DNA of 64,000 nucleotides, taken from Acidobacteriota bacterium. GTDB lineage: Bacteria; Actinomycetota; Acidimicrobiia; ATN3. The translations under genes and the position numbers were made by a program. Positions 5,004-50,864 of this stretch are shown one piece after another. Below the pieces are notes generated by a model, which saw only the letters and a program-made list of their open reading frames with translations, was not told the origin of the DNA and did not search any database. The stretch is taken from contig QEUQ01000004.1 in the NCBI GenBank assembly GCA_003577105.1, positions 22,156-86,155 on the forward strand, given 5' to 3'. Position 1 is the first letter of the stretch. Every line of letters begins with the position of its first letter.

Positions 5004-5016
5004 GGGTGTGACAATT
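5004..5016 (-). promoter_or_regulatory. Recurrent motif TTGTCACACCCC (instance 1), ~40 bp upstream of the zinc-ribbon gene
   Basis: Reverse complement of 'ggggtgtgacaat'. The same motif recurs at 6151, 7048, 40341, 44649, 50311 and 50834. Confidence 0.3.
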
Positions 5017-5303
5017 TCCGGGCCGGCTTCGGCAGCGGATCGCCGGCCGAAGGTCTGGAGCAGACTTTTCGCCGAAACCCGCTCCTCTCTCGGAGATCAA
5101 CAGGAAACGCCCGAACGCTATCGCCGGCTTAGACCGGTGCTGTCCCGTCGATATTCTCGGAGTCGCCGTGCCAGCTGGATCCTGATTGCCACCAAGGGCC
5201 AGCCAAGTTTTCGGAGCGAAGGGAAACGACTCCACAGCACTGCTCCATCTGTCTCCCGACCGCCACGCCGGATCGCATCGTGGCTGGCAACCCGCTACTC
5301 CAA

Positions 5304-5636
5304 TCAGCGTGTCAGCGCGCTCACCGTTTCCAGCACCGCGAACTTGCTATGCGACTCGCCGGGCTGATGCAGACCGATCGCCAGCTCAAAACCGGTGGCA
5401 TCCGCGATCTTGAGTAACGACCTGACGCTCGGCATCTGAGACCCACCCTCCCATCGTGCTATTGCGGCCTGCGACGAGCCGATCTTTCGCGCGAGCTCAT
5501 CTTGAGTGAGGCCAGCCGATGCGCGCGCCTTGAGGATCACATAACCAACCCCCATCGAACGACGCTCGCTCTCGTACGCCCGCCTGGCAGCACCGCTGAG
5601 AGGGCGGGGCTGCTTATGCTCTCGCCATGTCGTCAC
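5304..5636 (-). CDS. higA: HTH XRE-family antitoxin (HigA-like)
   Basis: 'LTQDELARKIGSSQAAIARWEGG' helix-turn-helix; overlaps the upstream toxin stop by 4 bp. Confidence 0.7.
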   Translation of the reverse strand: MTTWREHKQPRPLSGAARRAYESERRSMGVGYVILKARASAGLTQDELARKIGSSQAAIARWEGGSQMPSVRSLLKIADATGFELAIGLHQPGESHSKFAVLETVSALTR

Positions 5637-6106
5637 TTTTCGTTCTCATTTCTCCTGAGCCAGGCTCGCATGGGTTTTTCGGCTCGTGCGATCTCCGTAG
5701 GCGGCGTCCTTCTTGAAGTCTTTCGAAAGCTCGACAATAGAATCATTCTGCGTTTCGGATCCGCGAAATAGGTCACGCGCCACTTTCCAGGGCGGAGCTC
5801 CCGTAGCTTCCCTCTTAGCTGCCGACTATGGGGCTCCGACAGTAGCGGGCCGAATTCCTCCAATAGATCGATGTGGTGGCGAACTCGACCGCAGTCACCT
5901 GGGTGCGCCCGCTCAAGTTCTTCCAACCACAGCCTGACGGGCTCCCTTCCATTTGCGTCACTGAAGAACCACACCTCCCACATGTTGCGGCTCATATCAT
6001 AATTAGCATATGCATGTCGGCTTGGTCGGTCAAGGGAAGAACATCGTCCGAACAGTCGACTCGTGCGCATTGAGGCATGTGGCCCCCCTTCGAAAATCCG
6101 TGCCAT
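5633..6106 (-). CDS. higB: RelE/ParE-superfamily toxin (HigB / Gp49-like killer protein)
   Basis: 'WEVWFFSDANG...VRLW...LEE' N-terminus typical of the Gp49/HigB family. The true start is probably the internal Met near 5983-5995. Confidence 0.65.
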   Translation of the reverse strand: MARIFEGGPHASMRTSRLFGRCSSLDRPSRHAYANYDMSRNMWEVWFFSDANGREPVRLWLEELERAHPGDCGRVRHHIDLLEEFGPLLSEPHSRQLRGKLRELRPGKWRVTYFADPKRRMILLSSFRKTSRRTPPTEIARAEKPMRAWLRRNENEK

Positions 6107-6136
6107 TCAGCCGGCCAATAACCAACAGGCTGATCA

Positions 6137-6339
6137 CTGAACCTATCGACGGGGTGTGACAATCGATGCCGCGCCAAAGAGGAGCGCCGCATGTGATCGA
6201 GAAGCTGCAAAGAATCTGGAGAGGTCTGACGGGACGCGACACGACGTATCCGCACGAACTCGCGTTCGTGTTGACGTCGCCGTTGCGGAACTTGATCCTT
6301 AGCCCAGCAGCGCTTGCATCATGCCTCTCGCTTGAGGAA
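6137..6339 (+). repeat. Direct repeat copy 1 (~200 bp, ~90% identical to 7033-7235)
   Basis: Contains the TTGTCACACCCC motif (6151-6163) and a 5' fragment of the 7059-7676 methyltransferase gene (ORF 6166-6381, 'VIEKLQRIWRGLTGR(D/E)TTYPHELAF...'). Confidence 0.8.
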
Positions 6340-6381
6340 GTACCGGCGGCTCGCGAACTCCGGCTGGCCGACGCACGATGA
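6166..6381 (+). pseudogene. 5' fragment of SAM-dependent methyltransferase gene (duplicate of the start of 7059-7676)
   Basis: The first ~57 aa are near-identical to the N-terminus of the full methyltransferase, then diverge and terminate. Confidence 0.6.
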
Positions 6382-6389
6382 GGCCGCGG

Positions 6390-6821
6390 CTAAGAGGCCG
6401 CTCGATCAAGGATTTGCTGCACACGCTGGTGTGAAATTCCCAAGAGGGTCGCCGCGTCACGTCGACTGACACCGCGCGCCGTGAGCTGCTCAACAGCGAG
6501 AGCTGTCTTCTCATTCAGTTGATCCTCAATTGCGCGAGCTTCGTCCCGCATCCTTCGAGTCGTCTCGACTAGAGCGAGCAATCGCTTCGGGAAGCCGAAT
6601 CGGGGAACGATTTCGAAGTCATCTGCAGCGGTCTCGTACCAGAGCGCCAGAGCATCTGCCATGTTGGCTTTGGCTGATTCGATAGTCCGGCCGTAGCTGT
6701 GTACGCGCGGCTCATCGATCGATTCGACCAGCCATGTTCCGTTGTCATCTGGCGTGAACCGAACCTCTACGGTCTTGGTCTTGCGCTTGGATTTCATCGC
6801 AACCATTTCCTTCCCAAGCAC
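6390..6821 (-). CDS. hicB: HicB-family antitoxin with C-terminal HTH
   Basis: UPF0150/HicB-like N-terminus ('KTVEVRFTPDDNGTWLVESIDEPRVHSYGRTIESAKANMADAL') plus a C-terminal HTH ('LLGISHQRVQQIL'); directly downstream of hicA. Confidence 0.75.
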   Translation of the reverse strand: MLGKEMVAMKSKRKTKTVEVRFTPDDNGTWLVESIDEPRVHSYGRTIESAKANMADALALWYETAADDFEIVPRFGFPKRLLALVETTRRMRDEARAIEDQLNEKTALAVEQLTARGVSRRDAATLLGISHQRVQQILDRAAS

Positions 6822-6994
6822 GGCTCTAGATCTCGCTCAATCGCCCGAAGCAGCCCCGTGCCCAGATCACGGCCAGCATGCCTAGGCACGACCGACTGGC
6901 AGTGCCCGCATCGGACAACCATGTGAGAACCGCTCTGGCGGACCCCCTCACAACCCTGCCTTCGCAGGCGTCGAATCAATTCTCTGTCGGTCAT
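6794..6994 (-). CDS. hicA: HicA-family toxin (YcfA-like mRNA interferase)
   Basis: 66 aa, 'LRRQGCEGVRQSGSHMVV' signature. Confidence 0.8.
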   Translation of the reverse strand: MTDRELIRRLRRQGCEGVRQSGSHMVVRCGHCQSVVPRHAGRDLGTGLLRAIERDLEPCLGRKWLR

Positions 6995-7032
6995 TCTAAC
7001 TGTCTATGCACTAGACGGAAAAGGGAACACCT

Positions 7033-7235
7033 CTGAACCTATCGACCGGGTGTGACAATTGATGTCGCACTACGCAGGGGCGCTCAAGGTGATCGAGAAA
7101 CTGCAAAGAATCTGGAGAGGCCTGACGGGGCGTGAGACGACGTATCCGCACGAACTCGCGTTCATCTTGACGTCGCCGCTGCGGAACTTGATCCTTAGCC
7201 CAGCAGCGCTTGCATCACGCCTCTCGCTTGAGGAA
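7033..7235 (+). repeat. Direct repeat copy 2 (motif, promoter region and 5' end of the methyltransferase gene)
   Basis: Aligns to 6137-6339 with about 90% identity. Confidence 0.8.
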
Positions 7236-7676
7236 TCAGACGTCGTTCTCGAAATCGGCCCAGGACCCGGCTACTTCAGCTCAGAGATTGCCCAGCGCCT
7301 GCCACAGGGCCGCCTCGAGCTTTTCGACCTGCAGCCCGAGATGCTCAAGAAGGCACGCCGGCGCATTCAGCACCACAGCTTGACCAATGCCGGATACACA
7401 GCTGGTGATGCGACACGCCTTCCATACCGTGACGGCGTATTCGACCGTGTCTTTCTCGTCGCGGTCCTCGGCGAGGTGCCAGATCATGAAGCCTGCCTAC
7501 AGGAGGCACATCGGGTGCTCAAGGCCGATGGCCAACTGTCGATCACCGAACAGCCGGGCGATCCCGACTTCATCAAGCGCGCTCATCTCGATCAGATGGC
7601 GGCACGGGCAGGATTCGAGCCCGCAGAGTCGTTCGGCAGGGGCCTGAACTACACGGCGAATTACGGGAAGGCCTAG
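7059..7676 (+). CDS. Class I SAM-dependent methyltransferase (type 11 / UbiE-like)
   Basis: 'VLEIGPGPGYFS' motif I, 'LFDLQPEML', 'DRVFLVAVL' motifs. Confidence 0.8.
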   Translation: MMSHYAGALKVIEKLQRIWRGLTGRETTYPHELAFILTSPLRNLILSPAALASRLSLEESDVVLEIGPGPGYFSSEIAQRLPQGRLELFDLQPEMLKKARRRIQHHSLTNAGYTAGDATRLPYRDGVFDRVFLVAVLGEVPDHEACLQEAHRVLKADGQLSITEQPGDPDFIKRAHLDQMAARAGFEPAESFGRGLNYTANYGKA

Positions 7677-7745
7677 GCGAAAGCCGCCAGCGCCGATCCG
7701 ACAAGACAGTCTTGCCAATTCCTACCGCAGTAGTAAGATGGCGGC

Positions 7746-8060
7746 ATGCCAGCTCGGAAATACTCCGCATCAATGGATTCAGACCTGCTACTCGAGGTCG
7801 AAAGCGCCGCGCTTGCAGAGGGTGTGACCACGTCGGCATGGCTGGCTCGGGCCGCTGAGGACCGGCTTGCAATCATCGGTCTGCGTGAGTTCATCGCAGA
7901 CTGGGAATCGCAACACGGAGAGATCACCAGAGAGGAGCGGCGACGAGCGCGTAGCAAGATCGACCACGCCATAGCGACGAGCGGCCAGCCCAAGAGTTCA
8001 AGAGCGCGCACCAAAAATGCCTCGGGATCAGCGGAGAACCGCACGAAGAGAGCCAGCTAA
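7746..8060 (+). CDS. vapB: Ribbon-helix-helix antitoxin (VapB/CopG-like)
   Basis: Small protein immediately upstream of a PIN toxin, separated by 3 bp. Confidence 0.55.
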   Translation: MPARKYSASMDSDLLLEVESAALAEGVTTSAWLARAAEDRLAIIGLREFIADWESQHGEITREERRRARSKIDHAIATSGQPKSSRARTKNASGSAENRTKRAS

Positions 8061-8062
8061 GC

Positions 8063-8464
8063 GTGAAGAGGGGGGATCACCGCGGTCTAACACTCGACGC
8101 AGGTGCTCTGATCGCGATCGACCGCAACGACCGCAACGACCGCAACATCATGGCGCTATTGAAGGATTTCGTTGAAAGAGGCGTAGTTCCCACAATTCCC
8201 GCTCCCGTCGTCGCCCAAGCGTGGCGATCCTCACGCCAGTCAAACCTCGCCCGCTTCATCAAGCTCTGCCGCGTCGAACCTACCGATCTAGAACTCGCTC
8301 GCCTTGCCGGGGAGCTGTGCCGATCGGCCGATGTAGCTGATGCGATCGACGCGATCGTCGTAGCAAGCGCCGCTCGCAGAGGTGATCTGGTGGCGACCTC
8401 CGATGCCCGGCACTTCAGGCGCATGGCAGCCCACGTTGAGGGCGTCGTGATACTCAACATCTGA
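8063..8464 (+). CDS. vapC: PIN-domain toxin VapC
   Basis: 'LTLDAGALIAIDR' PIN N-terminus with an acidic triad. Contains a 3x 'gaccgcaac' tandem repeat (DRNDRNDRN) at 8119-8145. Confidence 0.75.
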   Translation: MKRGDHRGLTLDAGALIAIDRNDRNDRNIMALLKDFVERGVVPTIPAPVVAQAWRSSRQSNLARFIKLCRVEPTDLELARLAGELCRSADVADAIDAIVVASAARRGDLVATSDARHFRRMAAHVEGVVILNI

Positions 8465-8475
8465 CTCCCCCGAAC

Positions 8476-10716: not shown

Positions 10717-10764
10717 TGGAGATCAATATGGTTCGCTCGTTGATCACATCTTCGCGGAGGTTCG

Positions 10765-14717: not shown

Positions 14718-15137
14718 TCACTTTCGTCGCCAAGGATCGATTGTCTTGATGCCCGTATAGCGGAAATCCTTGACGTTCCGCGTTAACAGCGCCGACCCGT
14801 GAGCTCGGCAAATCGAGGCAACCTGGGCATCGAACCCGTCGATCGGAACTCCCCGGCGATCGCGCGCATCGACTATCTCCGGGTAACACAGCGCCGCAGT
14901 CTCATCGAAGGGCAAAACCTGATCCTCAAACGCACCGAAGACGTCAATAGCCGTGGCCTTCAAGATCTCTTTGCGGCGACCCTTCGGCAGTCGCTCGATT
15001 CCGTAGAGAATCTCTGCAACCGTGATTGAGGTTGTGCACAACTCCCCGCTAGGTCGAGCCAGCACCCAATCTCTCACTGCGGGGTCCGGCTCGGGCCTCA
15101 TGAGCTCAGACACTACGTTGGTATCGACAACGATCAT
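14718..15137 (-). CDS. vapC: PIN-domain toxin VapC (FitB-like)
   Basis: 'MIVVDTNVVSELMRP' PIN N-terminus and a C-terminal acidic residue ('LLTRNVKDF'). Confidence 0.85.
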   Translation of the reverse strand: MIVVDTNVVSELMRPEPDPAVRDWVLARPSGELCTTSITVAEILYGIERLPKGRRKEILKATAIDVFGAFEDQVLPFDETAALCYPEIVDARDRRGVPIDGFDAQVASICRAHGSALLTRNVKDFRYTGIKTIDPWRRK

Positions 15138-15379
15138 TCAGACAGATCTGGTGATCGCACCGTAGCCGACCGCTCGGGTAGGTCAAGTGTGACACCGCCT
15201 ACCTCACTGAAGCGCTCCACGAGTGATGCGAGCAGGCCCTTGGAATCACCCGGCTCACTGACCGCCTCAGCAAGGATGGCGCGAATCTCGGCTTCCATCG
15301 ATCGGCGATTCGCAGCTGCTCGGATGCGCAGTCGCTCTCTCACTTGGTCATCTAGATTTCGAATGCTCACAGCTGCCAT
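15134..15379 (-). CDS. vapB: VapB/FitA-type antitoxin (RHH)
   Basis: 'MAAVSIRNLDDQVRERLRIRAAANRRSMEAEIRAIL' is classic FitA/VapB; the internal Met at 15379 is the likely start; 4-bp overlap with vapC. Confidence 0.75.
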   Translation of the reverse strand: MAAVSIRNLDDQVRERLRIRAAANRRSMEAEIRAILAEAVSEPGDSKGLLASLVERFSEVGGVTLDLPERSATVRSPDLSE

Positions 15380-15776
15380 CGCCAATACCTCCTTAGTGCT
15401 AGCAATGCTAGCACTGGTAGGCAGGTGAGTCTCCCCAACCCAGACTGCATGGCCGACGACCCCCTTGCCGTTCGCGGTTACCTTGACGTTGTTTGCTGCC
15501 CGTGTAGTCTTCACCTAGAAAGTGCCCTTCTCGTCGAGGTTCCTGTGCGGCTTGCACCCGCCGTTTCCCCTGTCAGGAGGGCGTTTTCGCGGATTTACCT
15601 GCTCAGATCAGGGCGTTTTCGTGGAGAATCGTGGCTAATGCAACGAGTTCGGGACCCCGAGTACGCGGCTCTCGCGCCAATCTTCCTTTTCCTCCATGTC
15701 GCCGCCGTGGAGGTGCTTGTGGCACTGCCCGCCCACGAGTCATCGTCGAGGCGGCACGTGGCTGGGTGATGTCGGG

Positions 15777-34962: not shown

Positions 34963-37900
34963 GGCGTACCGAAGATCTCGGGGTAGCCGGCTGCAATCTC
35001 AGGCCAAGCCGACTTGTCGTATCCGAAAACAATGATGGTGTAGCCGGCATCGGTGAGGGCGTCGCGCTTCTCGGCGTCGCCCTTTGCCACATCAGCGTTG
35101 TCGTGAATAGGGCCGTCTATGAATACAGCAGCTGAGTACGACTTATAGAAAAAGTCGGGTTGTACGTAGTGGCCATCGATCTTCACCTGTGCTGCATCAG
35201 GCATGTCGAGATTGGCTTCGTCAACGAACTTCAACCACTCGCGCTCGAGGTCTGAATCGCATAGCTTCTCGAGTCTTGCCCGGTGCTCGGCACGTGTCAG
35301 CGGCCCCGGGGATGCAGCAACCTTTGCGTTGGTGAGATCCATCAGGAGCTGGCGAATCGCCTTGCGGTCGAGTGCCTTGTGGTCTCGCTGATTGCGATAG
35401 GTCATGAGGCAGTTGTAGCAAGCTTTCTCGCAGTCTTCTTCGGCGTTGTCGGCGCGGCGCAGGTCGTCGCCGGTCTCGGGATCAAAATGACAAATCTCAA
35501 GTGCCTTACCTGCGATGCCCGCTAGAGCATTGGGGTCATCGACTAGCTGACGAAGTACTCCGGCGCCGCCTTCGGCTGCTTCATAGAAGAGGAGCCTCCT
35601 CGGGTCGCCCCCGGTCGGAAGGGCTTCGGAGGCAATCTCGTTCTCTTCAAGTTCGTAGACGATGCCAATTGCCGCGGCGAGTGCTGCTTGGAGGGACTTG
35701 ATCTCTGCGGTGCCGAGGTCATCGCCGGGCTCGATCAGAAGGCAGTTCTTCTTGTCATCCACATAGGGAACAACCATGCGCTTGCTTGCGCTCATCGGGT
35801 CGCCGGGGTCTTCGTCTTCGGACAGCTCGTCGTTCCGGCCCCAATAGCCATTTTGGGTGTCGAGCTGGAAGCCCCAGGCATCTTGCTTCTTACGCCTGCG
35901 CCACCCGGCATTGACACGCCAAATGGTTGCCGAGCTTCCGTAGCTGAGCCGACCCCACTCGTCGCCATTGATCTCGACCTGGCCAATGCGCCTGTGAGTG
36001 CTGTTGCCTGAGCCGCCGAATCTGAAGAAGGCATGGATCTCGTAGCCGATGCGGAGGCGGTCCTCTTCATCGGAGGTAATGCGCTGGCGCCGCCTCGTGT
36101 TTGCGTTGCGCATCCGAAAGAGATCGGAGCGGGCAAAGCCGAGAGCCCCACCACAGAGGTGGCACTCGTCGGGCCCCGGAGGTTGAGGTATCTCGTGAAT
36201 GTATCCACATGATTCGCAGAGCTTGGCCGTACTCGTCAGGGCGTTCATCTCGTCGGTGTCTTTGCTGCCGGCGAAGATCACACCGTTGATCTGATACTTC
36301 GCCCCTTCGTGGTAGACGATCGCCCGGGGACCGAACTCGGAGATCGCTAGGAAGCGAGGCCGGCTCAGGTATTCGTCGAAGCCCTTGTTCCGCCTGCGGG
36401 CCGGAATGTATGCCGATATCGGCAGGCGAGGGAAGCTGTAGCCGGGGAGGAACCCTTGGCTCGCAAAGTAGCGGTACGAGTAGAAGTCAGACTGGCTGAC
36501 TTTTCCCTCTGAGCTGAGCAAGATCTTGATCTGTTGCTCGGCCTCATTGCGCAGACGCGTGGCGGTCTTTCGTGCCTCGGCTGCCGTGGCGGCGTTCTGA
36601 ATCACCGCGTTCTGGTTCCGGTGCTGGGATTGGGCGGCAAAGTAGAGCTCACGCCAGCGGTCACATGCCCGGTCAAGCTGGCTGGGGCACTGACTGATTA
36701 CCTCGTCGAGCCAATAATCTGAGTACCAGTCGGGGTCTCCCGGTCGCAGATCGATTTCGTCGAGCATTGATGCGGCCCTAGTCCGCGCCGTAGATGCAGC
36801 GGTCTTGCTTCTCAGCGCCTCGGCGACGTGGTCTTTGAGGGGGTAGTGGCCGGTCTCATTTTCGAGATCGAGGATGTCACGCAGCGACTTGTGGAGATCC
36901 ACGCCGGTGGCGCGGAGCCAGATCGCTTGAACGTGTGAGCGAATCAGATCTTCGTTGTGTAAGTCGATGCGGGGCAGGGAGACTTCGCCCGAGACCATCG
37001 CATCTTGGCGGCGGAAGAAGTACTGGTCGTGCGGGCTGCCGGCGGTGCAGTAGGTGATGACAATCGCGGGCTGGCCCTGACGCCCTGCTCGCCCTGAGCG
37101 CTGCGCGTAGTTGGCGGGCGAAGGTGGAACGTTTCGCATGTGGACCGCGTTGAGATCGGCGATATCTACGCCGAGCTCCATGGTCGGCGAACAGTAGAGG
37201 ATCGGCAGCTGCGCGGATCTGAAGTTCTCTTCGCGTCGTTCGCGCACCTCGTAAGGGACCTGCGCGGTGTGCTCGTGGGCTTCTAGACCCTTTGTTGAGA
37301 GCGCGGCTAAGCGGTAGAAGTCGGTGAAGAACTCGTTGGCGGCATCTGGGATTGCGGTGGCCGTCTCGTTGTCTTGGCCAGTGCCCTCTGCGTCGCCAGT
37401 GCCCTCTGCGTCGCCTCCGCTCGTGCGGAGTTCGTCTCTGACGGGGGTGCCGTCGCCCGGAACCCATTTCATGCCCGCTGCGACTAGTTGATAACCACCT
37501 GCTTGGTCACCTTTGGCTTCGTCAATGCACTCGACCAACCCGGCTTTGCGGAGATTCTCGAGCAGATCGAGAAGTACCATCGGCACTTCATCGGATCCGA
37601 TCGGCGACTCTAAGTTGGGGAAAGTACTTTTCTTTCGTAGGAACTGGCCGATGAGGCTCCGTGCCGAGCCATAGCGGTTGAGGCTGGACTCACCCCGCTT
37701 ACTGACCCTGGGATACAACAAGCCCGACTTCTCGAGGTTCTCACCTTCATCAATTGCCCACGGCTCGCGAAGACGCTGTTCGGAAACGCTGCGAATTCGC
37801 TCTTGTTCCACCGGGTCGAGATACGAGACCTTGATCAGCAGTTCAGTCCGCATGAACTGGAGGAGTGTTGTAGCGACTTTGGCGCGCACCTCGGGTGTGG

Positions 37901-40304
37901 CCGTTGTGAGGGCGAGGTGGAGGCCGGTCCAGTCATCGTCGTTGGCACAGAGCTCATCGAGTGACCGGTACTCGATCTTGAGTAGTCCACACTGCTCAAG
38001 GTTGGGCGAGGTGATGCGCCAGCCGCGCTTGAGGTCTTGGTAGAGGCGATAGCCGAGGACTTCGCGCATGGCACGGTAGGTGTCGTCTTTGGCCGCGTAC
38101 TTGACCTCTCGATCTGCCGCGAAGTCCTCCAAGCCAAGGTTGAGCGAATCAAGTACGCGATGAGGAAGTTCCTCATGGGTGAGCCCCTCGGGATCTGCCT
38201 CCTCGGCTGCGTTGAGGAGAGCCGCTCGGATCATCCCCGTCTGGATGAAGTCGTTGAAGTGACCGGCCTGAAGTGATGCATCTTGCCGGTCGTCGGTGAA
38301 GCTGAGGAGCTTGCGGGCTTGAGCCGCCAGATCTTGGTCGGCTTTGAGGCGGCGAACAAGCGACAGCGAGAGGATCGTCGTTGCGGTGGATCGCCCTTCG
38401 CTAGATAGCGTGCCGAGCTTGGCGAAGTCCGAGCGCTGCTTCGACGAGTAGGTGACCCCACACTTGATACAGAACTGGAATGGCGCATAGATCAGCGCGC
38501 AGTCGACACCGCTGCCGGTTGCGTCTGCTCCGTTCTGTGCGCCATCGGTGCCAACTCGAATCGCTCTGGGTATGTGCTTCTTGCTGTTGCGCTTGACCCG
38601 AGCGTCAGAACCGCTCCCTTCGATCCAGTCTTCTGGAATCAGCGAGATCTGTTCTGAAGGGCCGACCGGCCAAGGCTTGGTCTCACTCATATATAGGAAT
38701 GCAGGTTTCTTGCCAGAATCCTCGAAGCGATCGGTCAGCTCTCTGGGCGAGAAGGTGAGGTCGCTTTCGTCTTCGTCGTCGGAGGCATATACGACGTAGT
38801 ACTCCTGCCCGCATCCCGGATTTCGACAGAAGGCGATGGGCAGGAGAATCTTGTCGCGATCGCCGGGAACGAATTGCTGTGCTTCGGTTGTAATGTGGCG
38901 TTGATCGGCCGGTTCAAGCGATGCATAGGCGCTCGTTCCGCGGCCGATGAACTGGTGAAGTCTGAATGCGAAGACCGGGAAACCCGTTGCGGGGTTGGTG
39001 ATCGCGTTGCCGTCGAGGAGGGCTTGGCGGATGGCCGATGTGGCGGCATCGGGGTCTGTCGACGTGAGCTGCGCGAGTACTTCGGCCGCACCTCCGTGGC
39101 CGTCAATAGGCCGTGGCTTCTGGCGAATGTAAGTGCCGGTTTCGTCTTCACGTATCAGGCCGAAGGTGGACTCGATCCATTGCGCTAGCGGGTCTCCTTG
39201 GAGGTCAGCGAAATTCTCCGGCCGGTTGTAGTTGTTGATGCGCTTGCCCAGCGCATCCCGAAAAATCTCGCTGTTGAGATCGGGTTCGTGCGTCGCGCGG
39301 CGAAGTGTTTCGCCGATGACGTTCTTAGCATCGACCGTTGTGCCAAAGATCTGCGTGGCAACCTCAGCGACACGAGTCCGTTGCTCTTCTATGGAGCTGC
39401 CACCGGCGAGCGTTGCCGACGTGCCAACGCATTGAAGACTCGGTGAGTTGCAGGTTTCCCGCACCCGCCTGGCGAGCATCGCAACATCTGCGCCTTGGCG
39501 CCCCCGGTAGGTGTGGAGCTCGTCGAAGACCAAGAACTGAAGGCCCTCGGCTCCGGCAATCAGCTTGGCTTCTTGGGGGCGAGTCAAGATGAGCTCGAGC
39601 ATGACGTAGTTGGTGAGCAAGATGTCGGGAGGGTCAGTGATGATCGCCTGCTTGGCCTCCTCGTTTTCCTGTCCGGTGTAGCGGCGGAAGGTGACGGGCG
39701 GTTTGTTCTGCGGGTAGCCGTTGCAGAGGAACTTGGCGAGCTCGCCCTCTTGGGAGTTGGCGAGCGCATTCATCGGGTAGACGACAATCGCCTTGATCGA
39801 GCCTCCCGAGCCTTGACGCAGCACCCTGTCGACGATGGGAACGATGTAAGCAAGGCTCTTGCCCGACCCCGTGCCGGTGGTTAGCACGTAGTTCGCCTGG
39901 GTTGCTGCGGCTCTGATGGCCTCTTCCTGGTGCTTGTGGAGCTGGATCAGCTCGCCCTCGCGAGAGGTGCCGTCATCATTCTTGGCCTTGTCACGCCGAA
40001 AAATGCGTTCACACTCCGGGTGGAGCAGGCCTTCGGCGATTAGGTCTGGGATCGGAGCGCCACGCTCGAACGAAGGATTTAACTGGATGCGCGGCTCGGG
40101 CCAGAGGAGGCCACGGTCGAAATAGTCGCTGACTTTCGCCTCGATGCGCGCGTCAGCAATGTTGATGAAACTCCTCACGTATGAGGAGAAGTCATCGATC
40201 AGTCCTTCGCGGAGATCGAATATGTCCACTTGGTTCCGCCCCAGTCGGCCGCCCCGAATTGCAGCTTGTGACCGACCAATTGGGCTTCGCGACAGCGCTT
40301 GCAC
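34959..40304 (-). CDS. Giant (1781 aa) DEAH-box helicase fused to a DUF1998-like domain (as in DrmA+DrmB; DruE-like) with C-terminal DUF559/Vsr-like nuclease-fold domain
   Basis: Helicase motifs '[15 protein letters not shown]', 'FDELHTY', '[13 protein letters not shown]'. DUF1998-like Cys cluster '[33 protein letters not shown]'. C-terminal '[21 protein letters not shown]...[18 protein letters not shown]' resembles DUF559. Confidence 0.7.
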
Positions 40305-40340
40305 GGCCAGCTCGATGCTGCGTCGAGAAGACTAACGCGC

Positions 40341-40351
40341 GGGTGTGACAC
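40341..40351 (-). promoter_or_regulatory. Recurrent motif (GTGTCACACCC) 37 bp upstream of the DISARM-like operon start
   Basis: Same core as the motifs upstream of TA toxin genes. Confidence 0.3.
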
Positions 40352-40777
40352 TCTGCCGTGAGTCTTCCGGCGGGACTCGTTGTGCTCACACGGATTTGTC
40401 GCACCTGGTGGCTAGTGTGCGACTTGCCGGGGCTGACCGTCAGCCGCTTCCTCTTGGTGCTATCTCGCTCAAGGGGAGCCATGCGTTTCATCCGCAACGT
40501 CGAGGACGACAACGGTGATTTGGTCGAACTCATCTACTACTGCAGCTGGCTCTGCTTTTCGACTGAGTCTGACGCGGCGGTCGCGTCGCTGACCGGCGGT
40601 GCCTGGCCGTGCTTAGACTCGGAGCTGACTCTTCCGGCGGTTTGCCGAGGGTGTGGCCGACCCGTCGGTGCAAGCGACTCGATTGAAGTCGAACTGGAAC
40701 TGCATTCGTCGGCCCATGGCGCCTCGACGGATCTCGCTGAGCGATACTTTGGGTCTGGTTTTCGAGAAAGGGGGCGC

Positions 40778-41911
40778 ATGGCGCGCACGCCCAAAGTTCC
40801 GGTTACTCCGAGCCTCTTGAGCTGGGCCAGGGAGCTTTCGGGATACTCGCTGACCGACATCGCCAAACGCGTAGGGGTCAAGGACGCTACCCGTGTGGCC
40901 GCGTGGGAGGCCGGCGACGATCAGCCGACCCTCGCTCAAGTTCGAAAGCTCGCTGCGAGCTATGGCCGAACTCCAGCGTTCTTCTTTCTGAAGACCCCTC
41001 CGCCATCAGATCTTCCTAAGGAACCGGATTTTCGTGGTCTCACCGTCCGCGGCAGCCTAAGTCCAAAGCTCCGTCGTGAAATGCGCCTCGCTGCAGAGCG
41101 CCGTGCTAGCTACATTGAACTGCACGGTGCAGATGACTTCAGGCTCGCGGAGTTAGGCGTCTCGCTAGATCAGCCCGAGACCGCGGCGCGAGTGGTTCGC
41201 GACGCATTGGGCGTCTCGATTCGCGAGCAGTTCGAAGCGCGCGACAACAGTTGGGCATATTCGCTCTGGCTGTCCGCGATCGAGAATTCGGGGGTACTGG
41301 TCTTTCAAATGAGTCGGGTACCGCTCGCGGAGACACGCGGTTTCTCGATATTCGAGCCTGAGTCACCCGTGATTGTCTTGAACGGCGCTGATGTCCCTCA
41401 GGCGAAGAGTTTTACGCTCTTCCATGAGTTGGGCCATCTCCTCGAGAGTTCTGGCGGCATTTGTGGCTGGACAGACGATGCGGCTGAGCGACGTTGCAAC
41501 GCTTTTGCTGCCGACGCGCTGATGCCAGGTGCTGAGTTTCTGCACGAGCTCGGCGACCGCGACCCAATCGAGGCCATTTCCGATCTGGCAAGTCGTTTCC
41601 GGGTCAGTCGTGAGGCGGCCGCAGTTCGATTGAAAGTACTCGGCAGATTGGAACAACAGGATCTAGACCGCATTCGCCAGGAGACAGCTGACTGGGTCGC
41701 CGAAAACAGGCAGCGAGCAAGCGATCGGGAGGGCGGGCCACCGCATCACCTGATCCACCTTCGCAATCTCGGTCAGCGTTACGTCGAGGCTGTGCTCGAC
41801 GCCTATCAAGACGATCGGATCACGTTCGCCGATGCTGCCTTCTACCTAGATGCGAAGGTCCCGACGATTCAGCGCATGGAGCAAGCGCTTCAAGATCGAA
41901 ATGCGAGCTAG
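40778..41911 (+). CDS. HTH (XRE) + ImmA/IrrE-family metallopeptidase (COG2856) regulator
   Basis: HTH 'LTDIAKRVGVKDATRVAAWEAG' and HEXXH 'FTLFHELGHLL'. The longer ORF from 40358 has a non-conserved N-terminal extension, so the internal Met at 40778 is preferred. Confidence 0.7.
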   Translation: MARTPKVPVTPSLLSWARELSGYSLTDIAKRVGVKDATRVAAWEAGDDQPTLAQVRKLAASYGRTPAFFFLKTPPPSDLPKEPDFRGLTVRGSLSPKLRREMRLAAERRASYIELHGADDFRLAELGVSLDQPETAARVVRDALGVSIREQFEARDNSWAYSLWLSAIENSGVLVFQMSRVPLAETRGFSIFEPESPVIVLNGADVPQAKSFTLFHELGHLLESSGGICGWTDDAAERRCNAFAADALMPGAEFLHELGDRDPIEAISDLASRFRVSREAAAVRLKVLGRLEQQDLDRIRQETADWVAENRQRASDREGGPPHHLIHLRNLGQRYVEAVLDAYQDDRITFADAAFYLDAKVPTIQRMEQALQDRNAS

Positions 41912-41914: not shown

Positions 41915-42400
41915 GTGCCGGCTGTGCCCGCCGACAGTTACTGCATCGACACCAATGTCGTTATGGACCTCGGGCGTGTCTATCCGCGCGACGTGTTCCC
42001 AGGCGTGTGGGAATCAATCGAGACGCTCGTCGTCGAGGGGAGGGCTGTCATCCCCAGAGAGGTCCTCGATGAGTTGGAGCGACATGATCCCGACGCCTAC
42101 GAATGGGCGAAGGGACTCGATGACTTCGTGGTTGAACCTGACGATCACGAAATAGCAATCGTCGCGGAAATCGCCGAGAACCATCCCGATTGGGTGCAAG
42201 GGCGCAAGAACGCCGCCGACCCCTTTGTGGTCGCGAACGCGTCTGGTCACGGGAGAATTGTCGTTACACATGAAAGGCGGCGCGGGCCGGGCGTCTTGGA
42301 TCACAATCTCGGCATACCCAACGTCGCTGACGAATACGATCTCGAATGCATCTCGCTGCAAGAACTCGCTCGCCGTGAGCAATGGCAATTCAAGCGATAG
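41915..42400 (+). CDS. DUF4411-like PIN-fold protein (partner of ImmA/IrrE regulators)
   Basis: 'YCIDTNVVMDL' PIN-like N-terminus, 4 bp after the ImmA gene. This pairing is a known TA-like module. Confidence 0.55.
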   Translation: MPAVPADSYCIDTNVVMDLGRVYPRDVFPGVWESIETLVVEGRAVIPREVLDELERHDPDAYEWAKGLDDFVVEPDDHEIAIVAEIAENHPDWVQGRKNAADPFVVANASGHGRIVVTHERRRGPGVLDHNLGIPNVADEYDLECISLQELARREQWQFKR

Positions 42401-42472
42401 GTCGGCTCAAGTCCCCCAACCGAATCGCGTGGCAGCAGCGACGGGTGGAAGGCTGGCTGCACTTCGCTTGAG

Positions 42473-44380
42473 TCACAGGCAGCCGTCGTAGAGTTCGGCG
42501 TTGACCTTGAATCCGCTGTCAATGAAACGGACGACGTCATTTTCCGTGTGGAAGACCAGCGAGGTGCCGACGTTTGTCGGAAGGACTGGATCGACCTGGA
42601 CGATTGACCACGGCGGGTACTCTCCCTTGATGTTGAGATGGGTTCGGCCGGAGTAGGTACCGATGACCTGTGTTCCCGTATTGCCGATTCCGAGACCTTC
42701 TGCAGTGAGACTTGTCGAAGTTCCGTAGACGCGAGTGCTCACGATCACGCCGTAGTTGAGCATGAACCGGATGTCCCAGCCTGTCGGAGCCGCGTAGCGG
42801 CAAGAGCCATCGCCATAGAAATCCATACCAAGCGTGTATGTGAATCCCCCGATCTGGGCAGCCTCTGTAATCGACATCCCCGCGCGAATCGGGCCAATAC
42901 CTCTATGGTGGATGCGCGATGCCGCCGACAGGTAGGGCTCAGGCGCAGCCGGCGGACCGGGCTGGGCAGCGCCAACATGGCCGCCGTCTGCGAATCCTTT
43001 ATAGGTGAAATACATCGGGCGCTCGGTGACGATTGGCTGGTCTGACGCGACGCGCGCCGAGTCATCGACCCCGACGCCAAGATCGTTGCCGACCGCGAGC
43101 GTTCGGCGAGAGTTGGCCGGAACCATCAGTGATGTCGACGCCGTGGCCCCACCGGGGAACTGGTATGCGACGGTCACCCGTGCGTCGATGCCACCGGGAT
43201 TCTGAAACGTCAGGTACTCGTCGAATCCGGGGCCTGTGTAGCCCTCGGCGAAGTAGCCGGTTGTAAGCGGCGCGCTCTGCCCGACGACGACGCTGCCGCC
43301 ATCGACCGAACCCTTGTAGTTGAAGTACATCGGGCGCTCGGCCAGCACAGGCTGGTCTGAGGTGACTTTGGCCGAGACCTCTTGGTTGGCACCGACAACG
43401 TTGTTGACCCGCACGGTCGAGCGGGCGTGTGGCGGCACCACAAGCGCATTGCCAAAGGGCGTGCCCGAAGACGACTGATATGCGATCGAGACGTTGGCCG
43501 CGACCGATCCGGGGTTCTGCAGCGTGATGTACTCGTCGAATCCGGCGCCGGTATAGCCCTCGGCGAAGTAAAGGGTGGTGGCGGCTGCACTTTGCGCGGG
43601 CGAGACGTGTCCGTCGGTGATCGACCCGTGATAGGTGAAGTACATCGGACGCTCGGCCAGTATCGGCGCATCCGAGGTGAGCTTGGCACTCACCTCTTGG
43701 CCGGGGCCGACCTCGGCGTTGACGTTGACGGTCTGGCGCGAGGTCGGAGCGACTACATGTTGGGTGTTGATCACCGGTCCGGTGCCGAGCTGGTACTCGA
43801 TGTCGACGGTGGCCGGTGCGCCACCCGGGTTCTGCAACGTGATGTACTCGTCAAAGCCCAGGCCGGTGTACCCCTCTGCAAAGTACATCGTCTGGGCGAG
43901 CTGGCTCTGGCCGGATGCGACGTGCCCGCCCGTGACCGACCCCTTGTAGGTGAAATACATCGGGCGCTCGGCGAAGATCACCTGATCTGACTCGATCTTG
44001 GCGCTCACCTCTTGGCCGGGGCCGACCTCTGAGTTGACGTTGACAGTGGCGCGTGAGTTGGGCGCGACCTGGCGGCTGGTGTTGATCGTCGCCCCGGTGC
44101 CGGTCTGGTAAGTGATGTCGACGTTGGCCGTGGCCGTTGTCGGGTTCTGAATGGTGAGGTACTCCTCGAAGCCCGGCCCCGTATAGCCCTCGGCGAAGTA
44201 GAGGGTTGTTACCGGGGATGGGATGCGGGCCGTGTCGTGGGCCCTGGCCGTTGCGGTTGCCGGTGTCGCGGGCGTCGCGGCGATCACGAGCGCGGCGATT
44301 GCGGCGAGAGCTGCCGCCCTTCGGCGTTCTTGCGGCCGCCGCCGCCTCTGCCTCTGGTTCGTCCGACCCGTCTGCGCCAT
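42473..44380 (-). CDS. Tat-signal secreted protein with four tandem ~100-aa repeat domains
   Basis: 'RRRRPQERRRAAALAAIAAL' Tat-like N-terminus. Repeats of 'YFAEGYTG.GF.EY.T.QNP....V...YQ...G......VAP.SR.TV.VN..VG..QEVSAK..SD.P...ERPMYF.Y.G'. Confidence 0.55.
   Translation of the reverse strand: MAQTGRTNQRQRRRRPQERRRAAALAAIAALVIAATPATPATATARAHDTARIPSPVTTLYFAEGYTGPGFEEYLTIQNPTTATANVDITYQTGTGATINTSRQVAPNSRATVNVNSEVGPGQEVSAKIESDQVIFAERPMYFTYKGSVTGGHVASGQSQLAQTMYFAEGYTGLGFDEYITLQNPGGAPATVDIEYQLGTGPVINTQHVVAPTSRQTVNVNAEVGPGQEVSAKLTSDAPILAERPMYFTYHGSITDGHVSPAQSAAATTLYFAEGYTGAGFDEYITLQNPGSVAANVSIAYQSSSGTPFGNALVVPPHARSTVRVNNVVGANQEVSAKVTSDQPVLAERPMYFNYKGSVDGGSVVVGQSAPLTTGYFAEGYTGPGFDEYLTFQNPGGIDARVTVAYQFPGGATASTSLMVPANSRRTLAVGNDLGVGVDDSARVASDQPIVTERPMYFTYKGFADGGHVGAAQPGPPAAPEPYLSAASRIHHRGIGPIRAGMSITEAAQIGGFTYTLGMDFYGDGSCRYAAPTGWDIRFMLNYGVIVSTRVYGTSTSLTAEGLGIGNTGTQVIGTYSGRTHLNIKGEYPPWSIVQVDPVLPTNVGTSLVFHTENDVVRFIDSGFKVNAELYDGCL
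43015..44209 (-). repeat. Four tandem ~300-bp coding repeats inside 42473-44380
   Basis: Seen as four near-identical peptide repeats in the ORF. Confidence 0.6.
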
Positions 44381-44725
44381 GTTGCGAATCCCTCATGCCG
44401 ATTCGGCGATGCGCTTCGGTCGTCGAGCCTACCCGAGACAAACGCGACCCCATCACTGGCATCAAGAATTGAGTAAACCGGGGCACAGCCTTTGAGCTGC
44501 CCCCAAATCCCTTAACCGGGCCGTCCCGTCCGGATTGCTTTGGGCGTTCAATTCTTCGGAGCAGGCCTCGCGGTCTCTCCAGTCACACTCCCTCAGCCAC
44601 CTCGGCAATCCGATCGGAACGGAATCTAGGGCACGAGGGAGGTTAGATGTCACACCGCTCGCATACGCTCGGCTTCGATCACTTCCCCCGCCCATCCGAA
44701 CGGCGGTGAGAAGGAGTCTCCAAGA

Positions 44726-44920
44726 ATGAAGGTGAGAGAGGTGATCAAGTTGCTCGAACGAGACGGCTGGTACCAAGTCGCGATGCGCGGCAGCCATCGG
44801 CAATTCAAGAACACGAGAAAACCCGGGCGGGTGACAGTCGCCGGAAGCCCTTCTGACGATCTTGCTCCGGGTACGCTTAACAGCATCCTCAAACAAGCCC
44901 AATTGAAGGGTCGATACTGA
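44726..44920 (+). CDS. hicA: HicA-family toxin
   Basis: 'KLLERDGWYQVAMRGSHRQF' HicA signature, 64 aa. Confidence 0.8.
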   Translation: MKVREVIKLLERDGWYQVAMRGSHRQFKNTRKPGRVTVAGSPSDDLAPGTLNSILKQAQLKGRY

Positions 44921-45126
44921 TGCGCTACGCCGTTGTCATCGAGAAGGCTGACGGGAATTTGTCGGCGTACGTACCCGATCTTCCGGGATGTGTCGCGACC
45001 GGCAGAACCCGCGAGGAGGTCGAGAGGAACATCCGCGAGGCAATCCGATTTCATATCGACGGCCTGCTTGAAGACGGCGCGCCGGTGCCAGACCCAGAGT
45101 TCGACTTCGAGTACGTCGACGCCTAG
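44920..45126 (+). CDS. hicB: HicB-family antitoxin
   Basis: 'YAVVIEKADGNLSAYVPDLPGCVATGRTREEVERNIREAI' UPF0150/HicB; overlaps the hicA stop. Confidence 0.8.
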   Translation: MRYAVVIEKADGNLSAYVPDLPGCVATGRTREEVERNIREAIRFHIDGLLEDGAPVPDPEFDFEYVDA

Positions 45127-48095: not shown

Positions 48096-48149
48096 TGTGA
48101 CTGAGACTAGCAGCGACCGTTGGTCCTCGTGGTTCCCCGCGATCTCGCT

Positions 48150-48911: not shown

Positions 48912-48934
48912 TCGCGTTTCGCCTGGCTCTCATG

Positions 48935-49045
48935 GGTCGTATGCGCGCATCCGAGAGGCCATTCGGCTTCCCATCGACGGGCCCGTTGAAGACGGCGCGC
49001 CGGCTCCGGACCCGGAATTCATCTGCGAATGCGTCGACGCGCAAG
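48935..49045 (+). pseudogene. hicB 3'-end remnant (~75% nt identity to 45031-45126)
   Basis: Translates to 'ARIREAIRLPIDGPVEDGAPAPDPEFICECVDA', compared with HicB 'NIREAIRFHIDGLLEDGAPVPDPEFDFEYVDA'. Confidence 0.5.
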
Positions 49046-49079
49046 CACGCGCTGCGCGCCTCGGTGGCCCGTCCGGCGG

Positions 49080-50180
49080 TCAGTGCGAGACAAACGACGC
49101 AGACGTGGCCCGGCCATCCTTGAACGTGAACTGGAAGTCGTATAGCGAAAGCGTGCCGAGGCCAACCACCGACGTGAACTGAACTAGTCCTGGCGGGAAG
49201 TCCGAGGCCGCTGGAAGTGTGAAGAACGGCGGCTCTGGTGGCGCACCCCACGCTTTCACGTTGTCATTTACGAGCACGACGTGATCACCGTTGCCGACAT
49301 CAAGGGTGAACTGCACCTTGTCATAAGCCTCAGTACCAGTAAATGGAATGGGAGCTTTGGCAACCTGATTGCTCAATAACGAGATGTCACCGTTTAGGGG
49401 GGTAAATGGCAGCGTCGCGCCCGTGTCGAAGAAGGCTAGGTTCTTCTCCGCGATTCGTGACCGCTGCCCGTCGCGTTCAAGAAACACGCCCCCCGCCTCC
49501 GAGACGATGCTGGCGCGAATCCTCGAATCCACCATGAAGTCAACTCTAGAAATGTTTGCCGTGTAGCCGTATTTGAGGGAACCCGGGCTGACAAGAGGTA
49601 CGGCCGCAACTCCACGAAGCTTCTCGGGCGGCAGCGCTGCAAATTCGACGATCGCACTGTTCTGGCCTCCATTTGGGAACTGAAATGACATGTGGTCCGG
49701 CCGCAATTGGTCGATGACCGTCTCGACGCCGGGTAGGTTCTCGCCTTCCATGTTTCCCGACACACCAATGATCGAGTGCGGACCGACCCAGTTCTTGAAG
49801 TTCGCATCCCCGTATTTCAGATTCGGTGCGACTTCGACGACCGAATTGTCGGCGCCCAAAGCCTTCAGAGGCGCTGTCGCCGGGCAGAATTCCGCGAATC
49901 CGGCTCCGTAGTAGAAGGTTGGCTTGCTCGGGCAGGTGAGATTCGGGTCTTCGGGGTGACCGCCTACAAAGAGGTAGACGCTCCCGGTATCGACTTGGCT
50001 TCGAATGCGCTCGTTGCCGCGGACCAAGATCATGTCTGTGCTCGACGGAAATTGATCTTGAAGGGTCGGCTGGAGCTGTAGAGCAGTGCTTTGGAGGCCG
50101 GGCGGCTTTGCGCAAGCTGTGAGCGCGACGAACGCGAAAGAGAGAATCACTGCCCGGGCCCTCGGCTTATTGCGACGCAT
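49080..50180 (-). CDS. Putative lipoprotein / secreted protein, unknown function
   Basis: Signal peptide with lipobox 'AFVALTAC'; 366 aa. Confidence 0.45.
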   Translation of the reverse strand: MRRNKPRARAVILSFAFVALTACAKPPGLQSTALQLQPTLQDQFPSSTDMILVRGNERIRSQVDTGSVYLFVGGHPEDPNLTCPSKPTFYYGAGFAEFCPATAPLKALGADNSVVEVAPNLKYGDANFKNWVGPHSIIGVSGNMEGENLPGVETVIDQLRPDHMSFQFPNGGQNSAIVEFAALPPEKLRGVAAVPLVSPGSLKYGYTANISRVDFMVDSRIRASIVSEAGGVFLERDGQRSRIAEKNLAFFDTGATLPFTPLNGDISLLSNQVAKAPIPFTGTEAYDKVQFTLDVGNGDHVVLVNDNVKAWGAPPEPPFFTLPAASDFPPGLVQFTSVVGLGTLSLYDFQFTFKDGRATSASFVSH

Positions 50181-50339
50181 TCTTCGACCTCTCGCCGGCG
50201 ATAAACGATGCGTTCGCGGGGATCACGGCGATACCGGATGCTCCCAGGAGTCCGTGAGTCTACCCGCTCGTAGGGGGGGTGCCGTGCCGCTGTTACCCGG
50301 CCGTCGAATCTGTCATACCACCCGAATAGCGTCGGAACC

Positions 50340-50591
50340 ATGAATACAGAACGGCTGCTGCGCAAGATCAAACAAGGCAACGTGAACAACGTCGCCCTTG
50401 CCGATCTGCATCGCCTCCTCGTCGGTCTGGGATTTGACTTAGCACGTGTTCGTGGCAGTCATCACGTCTACAGCCACCTCGAATGCCGCGAGATCGTCAA
50501 TGTGCAGGAGGTCGGAGGCCAAGCGAAGCCATATCAGGTTCGGCAGATCGCGCATCTGATAGACCGCTACAATTTGGAGCTGGAGGCGTGA
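50340..50591 (+). CDS. hicA: HicA-family toxin
   Basis: 'LHRLLVGLGFDLARVRGSHHVY' motif; motif TGTCATACCACCC lies 20 bp upstream. Confidence 0.7.
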   Translation: MNTERLLRKIKQGNVNNVALADLHRLLVGLGFDLARVRGSHHVYSHLECREIVNVQEVGGQAKPYQVRQIAHLIDRYNLELEA

Positions 50592-50809
50592 ACTTGTCGG
50601 ATTACGCGATCAATATCTTCTATAGCGAGGACGACGCCGGCTATATCGCCGAAATTCCGGAACTCCCTGGTTGCTCGGCCTTTGGAGACTCACCCGAGAA
50701 AGCGCTGGCCGAATTGCAGGTTGCGCGAGGAGCCTGGATTTCCGCTGCCAAAGAAAGTGGCATTGAGATTCCGAAGCCCGTGACTCGACACGCCGCCTCG
50801 GGCAGTTAG
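50588..50809 (+). CDS. hicB: HicB-family antitoxin (GTG start overlapping the hicA stop)
   Basis: 'INIFYSEDDAGYIAEIPELPGCSAFGDSPEKALAEL' UPF0150/HicB. Confidence 0.65.
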   Translation: MNLSDYAINIFYSEDDAGYIAEIPELPGCSAFGDSPEKALAELQVARGAWISAAKESGIEIPKPVTRHAASGS

Positions 50810-50864
50810 TCGACTAGACGCACACCCCCAAGAATTGTCATACCCCTCTGACACACTCAGAGAC

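Follow-up and report, generated by a model that had tools for sequence, protein, structure and literature searches.

In mycobacteria, single-stranded DNA (ssDNA) that arises after DNA damage activates PafBC, a heterodimer of WYL-domain proteins. PafBC is wedged between region 4 of sigma-A and the promoter DNA, PafB reading a GTC triplet at about position -26 and PafC contacting sigma-A region 4. This sigma adaptation lets housekeeping RNA polymerase (RNAP) fire from promoters without a -35 element. The in vivo consensus of these promoters, from chromatin immunoprecipitation sequencing, is tGTCgg(N10)tA(N3)T, in which a canonical -10 is combined with a '-26 element' and no -35 (PMC8635444). The consensus of the RecA-NDp promoter class in mycobacteria is tTGTCRgtg-N8-TAnnnT (PMC8635444, PMC6789036, PMC5656591; for the class, Gamulin 2004 as cited in PMC8223512). 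In M. smegmatis, recA and uvrB depend on PafBC (PMC5656591), and promoter P1 of the M. tuberculosis higB1-higA1-Rv1957 operon is a RecA-NDp promoter inducible by mitomycin C (PMC2897130, PMC3968373). Nearly all actinobacterial species are reported to have PafBC (PMC8635444), and the pupylation locus is known from Acidimicrobiales. Published promoter alignments cover other actinobacterial orders only and do not include Acidimicrobiia. Here we describe a short recurrent element, TGTCAYACC followed after 7 nt by TAnnnT, in a 64,000-nt stretch of contig QEUQ01000004.1 (positions 22,156 to 86,155; hereafter the window), a metagenome-assembled genome (MAG) sequence rich in toxin-antitoxin (TA) and defence genes. 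Its features suggest, with a probability that we put at roughly 0.7, that it forms the -26 element of a bipartite promoter of the PafBC type, devoid of a -35, through which DNA damage would induce repair, TA, ImmA-DUF4411 and defence genes together.

Toxins wired into a damage regulon are also known from E. coli, where the SOS repressor LexA controls the TA loci dinJ-yafQ, yafNO, tisB-istR and symER, which respond to repressor release at palindromic LexA boxes. The E. coli loci share such wiring with what is proposed for the window and differ from it by the LexA repressor mechanism. In Moraxellaceae the WYL activator DdaA directly controls repair genes as well as defence genes (restriction-modification, CRISPR-Cas) under DNA damage (PMC12392091). 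The logic proposed below for the defence operon of the window is the same, in another phylum and with another motif and other defence systems. DdaA binding was shown experimentally, whereas the case for the window is drawn from sequence.

An earlier note on this DNA had reported a recurrent 12-mer, TTGTCAYACCCC, in front of seven genes, and all seven sites are indeed present, within 1-2 nt of where they had been placed. Exact copies of the 12-mer are found three times (5003-5014 and 6151-6162 on the minus strand, 50835-50846 on the plus strand), with 0 expected in 100 shuffles. The other four sites deviate by 1-2 bases and are among the 11 matches found with at most two mismatches (5 expected). 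The core 9-mer TGTCAYACC is more discriminating: seven copies are present where 100 first-order Markov simulations predict 0.47, and they coincide, in the orientation of the motif, with the seven sites. In six of these a TAnnnT hexamer comes exactly 7 nt further on. The combined pattern TGTCAY-N10-TAnnnT is present seven times where 0.15 is expected, at six of the reported sites and at a new one (55202-55223, minus strand). A position weight matrix (PWM) was built from these eight sites, which score 19.7-31.1 bits, and scanned over the window. It added a ninth candidate, TTGTCGCACCTGGTGGCTAGTGT at 40396-40418 (plus strand), with 15.9 bits; the best remaining background match scores 13.1. All nine sites are intergenic and each points at the start of a neighbouring gene. 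On two overlapping metagenome contigs, called genes take up 84-96% of this DNA. The sites have about 23 nt in common, are non-palindromic and lie in unrelated flanking DNA. The extended context which the earlier note took to be shared by several of them is exact at 6151 only, with one mismatch at 7047 and a partial match at 5003. The sites are, with PWM scores:

4992-5014, minus strand: site 1, TTGTCACACCCCGTCGC-TAGCCT, facing the Zn-ribbon gene 4726-4962 (-); 27.7 bits.
6140-6162, minus strand: site 2, TTGTCACACCCCGTCGA-TAGGTT, facing a higB-like gene and its HTH_3 antitoxin gene, within the duplication copy 6137-6360; 31.1 bits.
7036-7058, minus strand: site 3, TTGTCACACCCGGTCGA-TAGGTT, facing hicA 6794-6994 (-) and hicB-like 6390-6821 (-), within the duplication copy 7033-7256; 29.8 bits.
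40329-40351, minus strand: site 4, GTGTCACACCCGCGCGT-TAGTCT, facing the defence operon and kept in four orthologous operons; 23.0 bits.
40396-40418, plus strand: candidate site 5 (new), TTGTCGCACCTGGTGGC-TAGTGT, divergent from site 4 and facing the ImmA/IrrE-like gene; 15.9 bits.
44647-44669, plus strand: site 6, ATGTCACACCGCTCGCA-TACGCT, facing hicA 44726-44920 and hicB 44920-45126 (+); 22.6 bits.
50310-50332, plus strand: site 7, CTGTCATACCACCCGAA-TAGCGT, followed after 7 nt by the ATG of hicA 50340-50591 (leaderless); 21.4 bits.
50835-50857, plus strand: site 8, TTGTCATACCCCTCTGA-CACACT, followed after 7 nt by the ATG of the DUF4262 gene 50865-51371 (leaderless); 24.0 bits.
55202-55224, minus strand: site 9 (new), GTGTCATAGGCCAAAGG-TAGGTT, followed after 6 nt by the ATG of higB-like 54794-55195 (leaderless); 19.7 bits.
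6137-6360, unstranded: duplication copy A (copy B at 7033-7256), 224 nt with 86% identity, comprising the promoter motif and a methyltransferase 5' end.

The GTC triplet within TGTC is invariant in all nine window sites and in the corresponding sites of four orthologous operons (see below), and TAnnnT stands at exactly N10 from TGTCAY in 8 of the 9, site 8 with CACACT being the exception. The hexamer was marked as the -10 since three window genes (hicA at 50340, the DUF4262 gene at 50865 and higB at 55195) start 6-7 nt after it, the leaderless arrangement of actinobacterial mRNAs. TGTCA begins 16 nt upstream of this putative -10 and the gap between TTGTCA and the -10 is 11 nt, so that TTGTCA is too close to serve as a -35. 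A sigma-70 scan at sites 1-3 gave no -35/-10 pair, and the hexamers directly 5' of TTGTCA (CGGAAA, CATCGA, CATCAA, GGCAGA and others) do not resemble TTGACA. The fixed N7 phase, the leaderless starts and the missing -35 hexamer bear out the view of the earlier note that the motif is a common promoter element. The element thus described resembles the mycobacterial RecA-NDp/PafBC promoters in having an invariant GTC at about -26 and the same spacing to TAnnnT, in lacking a -35, in being non-palindromic and, in other Acidimicrobiia, in standing before recA, uvrB and further repair genes. Unlike the mycobacterial ones, the strong sites in Acidimicrobiia are conserved through nearly the whole spacer, AYACC being extended to ACACCCCGTCG. 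No paper giving this form of the motif was found in a literature search. The promoter class itself is known; new are the lineage-specific -26 element, its unusually dense wiring to HicAB and HigBA modules and its conserved link to a defence operon.

The genes behind the sites were assigned by Pfam, NCBIfam and PADLOC searches. The Zn-ribbon gene (Pfam Zn_Ribbon_YjdM) starts 40 nt after the 12-mer. The three hicAB modules (6390-6994 on the minus strand, 44726-45126 and 50340-50809 on the plus strand, the last with hicB at 50588-50809) have their hicA starts 52, 67 and 18 nt after it. The higB-like toxin gene behind site 2 (Gp49, 5633-5995, minus strand) is followed by an HTH_3 antitoxin gene (5304-5636, minus strand); the distance from the 12-mer is 44 nt to the longest open reading frame (ORF), which extends to 6106, and about 155 nt to the start consistent with the Gp49 domain. 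A sigma-70-like promoter, TTGACC-17-TATGCT at 6005-6033 (minus strand), lies between site 2 and this latter start at ~5995. The layout resembles P1/P2 of M. tuberculosis higBA1, a function of the second promoter being conjecture. The second higB-like/HTH pair, behind site 9 (54366-55195, minus strand), consists of a HigB-like protein (54794-55195) with matches in the PDB to the structures of M. tuberculosis HigB1 and S. pneumoniae HigB, and an HTH antitoxin (54366-54725). Like the M. tuberculosis toxin-antitoxin-chaperone operon higB1-higA1-Rv1957, the window has a Gp49-type HigB/HTH module behind a putative RecA-NDp-type promoter; unlike that operon it has five RNase-toxin modules with the motif (three hicAB, two higBA) and no SecB-like chaperone gene. 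Candidate site 5 faces an ImmA/IrrE-like HTH+M78 gene (40481-41911, plus strand), followed by a DUF4411 gene (41915-42400, plus strand). The DUF4262 gene (50865-51371, plus strand), which starts 18 nt after the 12-mer, is followed with 4-nt overlaps by MazE/AbrB-like (51368-51658) and PIN (51655-52059) genes, and the three may be co-transcribed. A homologue search with the DUF4262 protein gave no match besides the protein itself. Two VapBC-type modules in the window (7746-8464 and 14718-15514) have no motif site. The three HicA proteins can hardly be aligned with one another, and identity between the two HigB-like proteins is 37%. Recent duplication of TA modules is therefore not the source of the shared motif, except for the promoter copy at 6151/7047.

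Site 4 faces a minus-strand operon encoding a DruE-like helicase with DEAD and DUF1998 domains (34959-40229; 6e-95), a DpdE/DrmD-like SNF2 protein (32011-34962; 2e-252 / 7e-89) and a DrmMI-like methyltransferase (28154-32008; 9e-63), and possibly also a GmrSD-Schlafen gene (25714-28011). Described DISARM systems have a core of DrmA (helicase), DrmB (DUF1998) and DrmC (PLD), together with DrmMI/DrmMII and DrmD/DrmE. In the window, helicase and DUF1998 are fused in one protein of 1756 amino acids (aa) with DruE as its best score. No PLD-type DrmC was detected among the eight proteins scanned, and separate DrmA and DrmB proteins were not found. The label 'DISARM-like' that this operon had been given is thus approximate, its DrmD-like and DrmMI-like proteins being accompanied by a DruE-type helicase and by no PLD protein among those scanned; the best models for the operon's proteins come from three differently named systems, DISARM, Druantia and Dpd. 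The four closest DruE-like homologues (69-73% identity) are from other metagenomes and are followed by the same SNF2 gene, with different upstream neighbours (DUF429/BrnT, Fic, Mrr). In all four orthologous operons TGTCAYACC-N7 followed by TAGTCT, TAGTCT, TAACCT or GATAAT lies 100-190 nt ahead of the start. In the window the 12-mer is 110 nt from the start at 40229, which is fixed by the alignment with the orthologues (GTG, ATG or TTG, then GACATATTCGAT). When the upstream regions are aligned, TGTCA.ACC is invariant and the rest cannot be aligned except for a short box in the 5' untranslated region (5'-UTR) at the start codon. The invariance of TGTCA.ACC amid diverged intergenic DNA was therefore regarded as a phylogenetic footprint, which argues for a functional promoter at the defence operon. 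The 5'-UTR box (40230-40260 in the window; also in the orthologue contigs L167, L170 and L172) may serve in ribosome binding or be a regulatory RNA element. More distant DruE-like homologues (51-54% identity) occur in many phyla, as expected of a mobile defence system. A Logan contig of the same population (L001, SRR7051044) has an in-frame 78-nt insertion in the DrmMI-like methyltransferase gene relative to window position 30903, and a second contig (L002) breaks there; the insertion could be a population variant or reflect assembly collapse.

The distribution of the motif in other genomes was analyzed with a form having 18 specified bases, TTGTCACACCCNGTCGNTAG, which was scanned over 185,579 species genomes (596 Gb). 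It was found at 18 loci, 17 of them in Actinomycetota MAGs, mostly labelled Acidimicrobiia/Acidimicrobiales (Microthrixaceae, Aldehydirespiratoraceae, Poriferisodalis); the remaining locus, in a Myxococcota MAG, looks like a chance match. A uniform-composition estimate gives ~17 chance matches for an 18-base pattern in 596 Gb. This estimate is clearly too high, since a single match had the look of chance, and the case is accordingly built on taxon and gene context and not on the match count. The same form was found in 24 metagenome contigs, of which 19 have a GC content of at least 0.64. Genes downstream of these external sites encode UvrB (twice, L129 and L130), Lhr (four times, L123, L134, L153 and L164), RadA (L139), a RecQ-like helicase (L126), ComM/YifB (L140, L132), an SSB-like protein (L133/L156), a small LysM protein (L137) and many DUF222/HNH proteins. 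RecA is encoded downstream of the site in L150, as a 42-residue fragment for which 16 of 16 PDB matches are RecA. The sixth base of the hexamer, which is not forced by the pattern, is T in 28 of 34 non-redundant external sites, and a long ORF starts 5-8 nt downstream of the hexamer at 16 of 32 of them, the sites often lying 6-7 nt before a leaderless start codon. No additional relaxed sites were found in the DNA flanking these 18 loci of the species genomes. The earlier note had proposed that the motif coordinates TA and defence loci. This is plausible but too narrow, for the element also stands before recA, uvrB, lhr and radA in other Acidimicrobiia. With repair genes behind it, among which recA and uvrB, PafBC-dependent in M. 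smegmatis, the element is therefore better viewed as a putative general DNA-damage promoter of the lineage and not as a signal reserved for TA and defence loci. In its strong form the motif was also observed before genes for a DUF1883-TIR protein (L138, 5468-6247, minus strand) and an AbiEi_4-like protein (L148, 284-988, minus strand) in Acidimicrobiia-like contigs, which are further genes of defence or TA type.

In viral contigs the 18-base form has no matches. A generic scan with TTGTCAYACCCC-N5-TAnnnT gave at least 120 matches and is dominated by noise. Among the 120 matches listed (IMG/VR), 26 are in contigs with a GC content of at least 0.58 and several look genuine, for example TTGTCACACCCCCTCGATAGGTT; high-GC sites are present in L009, L015, L021, L118, L076, L077, L084 and others, and four viral contigs among the matches listed share an identical 23-mer. 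In contig L077 the site faces a 343-aa ORF which by eye resembles a YqaJ-type exonuclease. Actinobacterial prophages may thus also use a promoter of the damage type. Searches for HicA relatives in viral contigs gave none for one query and two for another, and the latter have ordinary TTGACA-N17-TATAnT promoters and no motif. The motif therefore belongs to the host lineage and not to the hicA gene family.

Several observations weigh against assignment of the element to the PafBC promoters. The bases 3' of GTC are AYACC(CC) in the window, versus gg/RGTG in mycobacteria, and AYACC might be a lineage-specific variant or, possibly, the mark of a different reader protein with the same geometry. No PafB or PafC gene (HTH-WYL-WCX), nor any other gene with a WYL domain, was found among the window ORFs scanned. 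The sites themselves are of unequal weight: those at 6151 and 7047 lie in a 224-nt direct duplication (6137-6360 / 7033-7256, 86% identity) and, both being inside it, have one origin and are not independent; site 8 has an imperfect -10 (CACACT), site 9 has AGG in place of ACC, and the score of candidate site 5 barely exceeds background. The external sites were fetched with 18 fixed bases and carry no information on the natural variability of those positions. Finally, the MAG bears the NCBI label 'Acidobacteria bacterium', and its assignment to Actinomycetota rests on sigma-factor homologues and the motif.

The divergent bases 3' of GTC (AYACCCCGTCG) are also an argument for an activator that is not a PafBC orthologue, another WYL paralogue or an unrelated sigma-adapting factor having taken over the regulon with the promoter architecture unchanged. 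Actinobacterial genomes encode about five WYL proteins each (PMC6789036), and in other phyla DNA-damage regulons are under the control of the WYL activators DriD and DdaA. We nevertheless consider such a replacement unlikely, since PafB and sigma-A, in the cryo-EM (cryo-electron microscopy) model, require GTC and the precise N10 phase to the -10, PafBC is reported from nearly all actinobacterial species (PMC8635444) and the regulon (recA, uvrB, lhr, radA, DUF222/HNH) matches the mycobacterial one. A PafBC-type WYL activator is, we infer, the best candidate regulator. Much less can be said for an operator of a repressor encoded on the island, for which the ImmA-linked HTH protein, suggested in the earlier note, and the HicB and HigA antitoxins would come into consideration. 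TA operons usually repress themselves at their promoters, several sites have genes for HTH proteins beside them and the motif overlaps the promoter. However, the motif is not a palindrome and keeps a fixed phase to the -10, it stands before core repair genes in numerous Acidimicrobiia genomes, which need not have the island, and the antitoxins are from two unrelated families, HicB and HTH_3. A motif-like site also precedes the ImmA/HTH gene, whose product is likely a target and not the regulator. An island repressor thus appears very improbable.

Reading the motif as the -35 of an alternative sigma promoter is barely tenable. TGTCACA is identical to the -35 consensus of ECF41 promoters (TGTCACA-n16-CGTC; PMC3426412), TTGTCA shares five of six bases with the TTGACA of ordinary sigma-70 promoters, and a sigma-70-family gene is present in the window at 57638-58579. 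Yet an ECF41-type -10, [CT]GT[CT] at 15-17 nt, is found in 0 of 47 sites, and leaderless starts 6-7 nt after TAnnnT would fall upstream of an ECF41-type transcription start. The targets are TA, defence and repair genes and not the carboxymuconolactone decarboxylase/oxidoreductase/epimerase (COE) genes of ECF41. For any sigma-70-family -35/-10 pair the TAnnnT, 11 nt after TTGTCA, is too near and nothing is conserved at 17 nt, while the sigma factor of the window, with regions 1.2-4, is of the group 1/2 type. A non-regulatory origin, as a duplication remnant or as a recombination or mobile-element end (attC-like, or resembling a miniature inverted-repeat transposable element) travelling with TA cassettes, has a next to negligible probability. 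Two of the sites are copies in the 224-nt duplication, long direct repeats flank two TA cassettes, and the island looks mobile, with ISL3 and Mutator-family transposases. Only ~23 nt are shared between sites with unrelated flanks, however, and there is no inverted-repeat partner; the presence of the motif before single-copy core genes (recA, uvrB, radA) elsewhere, in fixed phase to the start codon, argues strongly against such an end.

Two more specific candidates were rejected. An integron or attC-like cassette does not fit, as no integrase was found among the scanned ORFs, the sites are not imperfect palindromes and the motif stands at gene 5' ends in both orientations. The SOS box consensus of actinobacterial LexA is TCGAAC-N4-GTTCGA; with at most two mismatches it has 6 matches in the window against 4.6 expected, none of them at the nine motif promoters. 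One LexA-box-like match, at 6254, falls inside the duplicated methyltransferase 5' fragment.

The source organism is probably a member of Actinomycetota close to Acidimicrobiia, and the 'Acidobacteria' label of the MAG is probably wrong. The DUF4262 protein has an identical entry in NCBI, DCC49_02280 [Acidobacteria bacterium]. For the sigma-70-family protein, however, all 15 organism-labelled relatives among the best 120 matches are Actinomycetota, Actinobacteria or Acidimicrobiia, and the window is syntenic, from 55460 rightward, with two relatives whose sigma factors are 82-84% identical; the placement follows from these homologues and from the motif, which is specific to Acidimicrobiia. The TA and defence region left of ~55.4 kb was taken as a variable island. 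Direct repeats of host sequence bracket two of its cassettes, hicBA 6390-6994 (the 224-nt repeats given above) and the higBA-like pair 54366-55195 (54302-54406 / 55248-55352; 105 nt, 89%). Such repeat-bracketed cassettes would fit a Campbell-type single-crossover insertion of a circular cassette with a short homologous arm. Site 3 is back to back with a gene for an S-adenosylmethionine-dependent (SAM) methyltransferase (7059-7676, plus strand), and 6166-6381 is a truncated copy of the 5' part of this gene. Two further repeat arrays were observed. The DUF5719 gene (42473-44380, minus strand) has four tandem 315-nt units at 42962-44209 with 62-77% identity, corresponding to a repeated 105-aa domain. 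The ORF 59366-60736 (minus strand) has an array with a 33-nt period at 59565-59821, in six overlapping 92-nt copies, encoding 11-aa Pro/Gly-rich repeats; the syntenic ORFs of two relatives carry Pkinase domains.

If the element is a PafBC-type promoter, DNA damage or any other process generating ssDNA would switch on a PafBC-like WYL activator, which would adapt RNAP-sigma-A to these -35-less promoters. Together with the repair genes, three hicAB and two higBA modules, the Zn-ribbon gene, the DUF4262(-MazE/PIN) operon, the ImmA-DUF4411 pair and the DruE/DrmD/DrmMI-type operon would be induced. TA pairs and an anti-phage operon are thus probably induced together with DNA repair, as judged from the shared promoter element. 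The outcome would be growth arrest by RNase toxins and heightened defence, for example during prophage induction or phage infection. More tentatively, it may be speculated that the damage regulon of Acidimicrobiia runs on an extended -26 box, TTGTCACACCCCGTCG, which mobile elements have adopted repeatedly. The sensing of ssDNA would then double as an infection alarm that switches on RNase toxins (HicA, HigB), ImmA-DUF4411 and the DruE/DrmD/DrmMI operon, a direct link between damage response and immunity conserved across orthologous operons. This wider proposal is possible, though we would not yet regard it as the likely case.

The concept has precedents in P1 of M. tuberculosis higBA1 and in DdaA of Moraxellaceae, and known biology would be extended and not overturned. 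If true, the finding would define, at the level of sequence, the DNA-damage promoter of Acidimicrobiia, a largely uncultured and environmentally abundant class. TGTCAYACC-N7-TAnnnT would then be a simple predictor of damage-inducible genes in MAGs, including DUF4262, Zn-ribbon and DUF222/HNH genes. It would also mean that the damage regulon of these bacteria has TA modules and a large anti-phage operon of helicase and methyltransferase genes built into it, by an element that has been kept across the orthologues of the defence operon.

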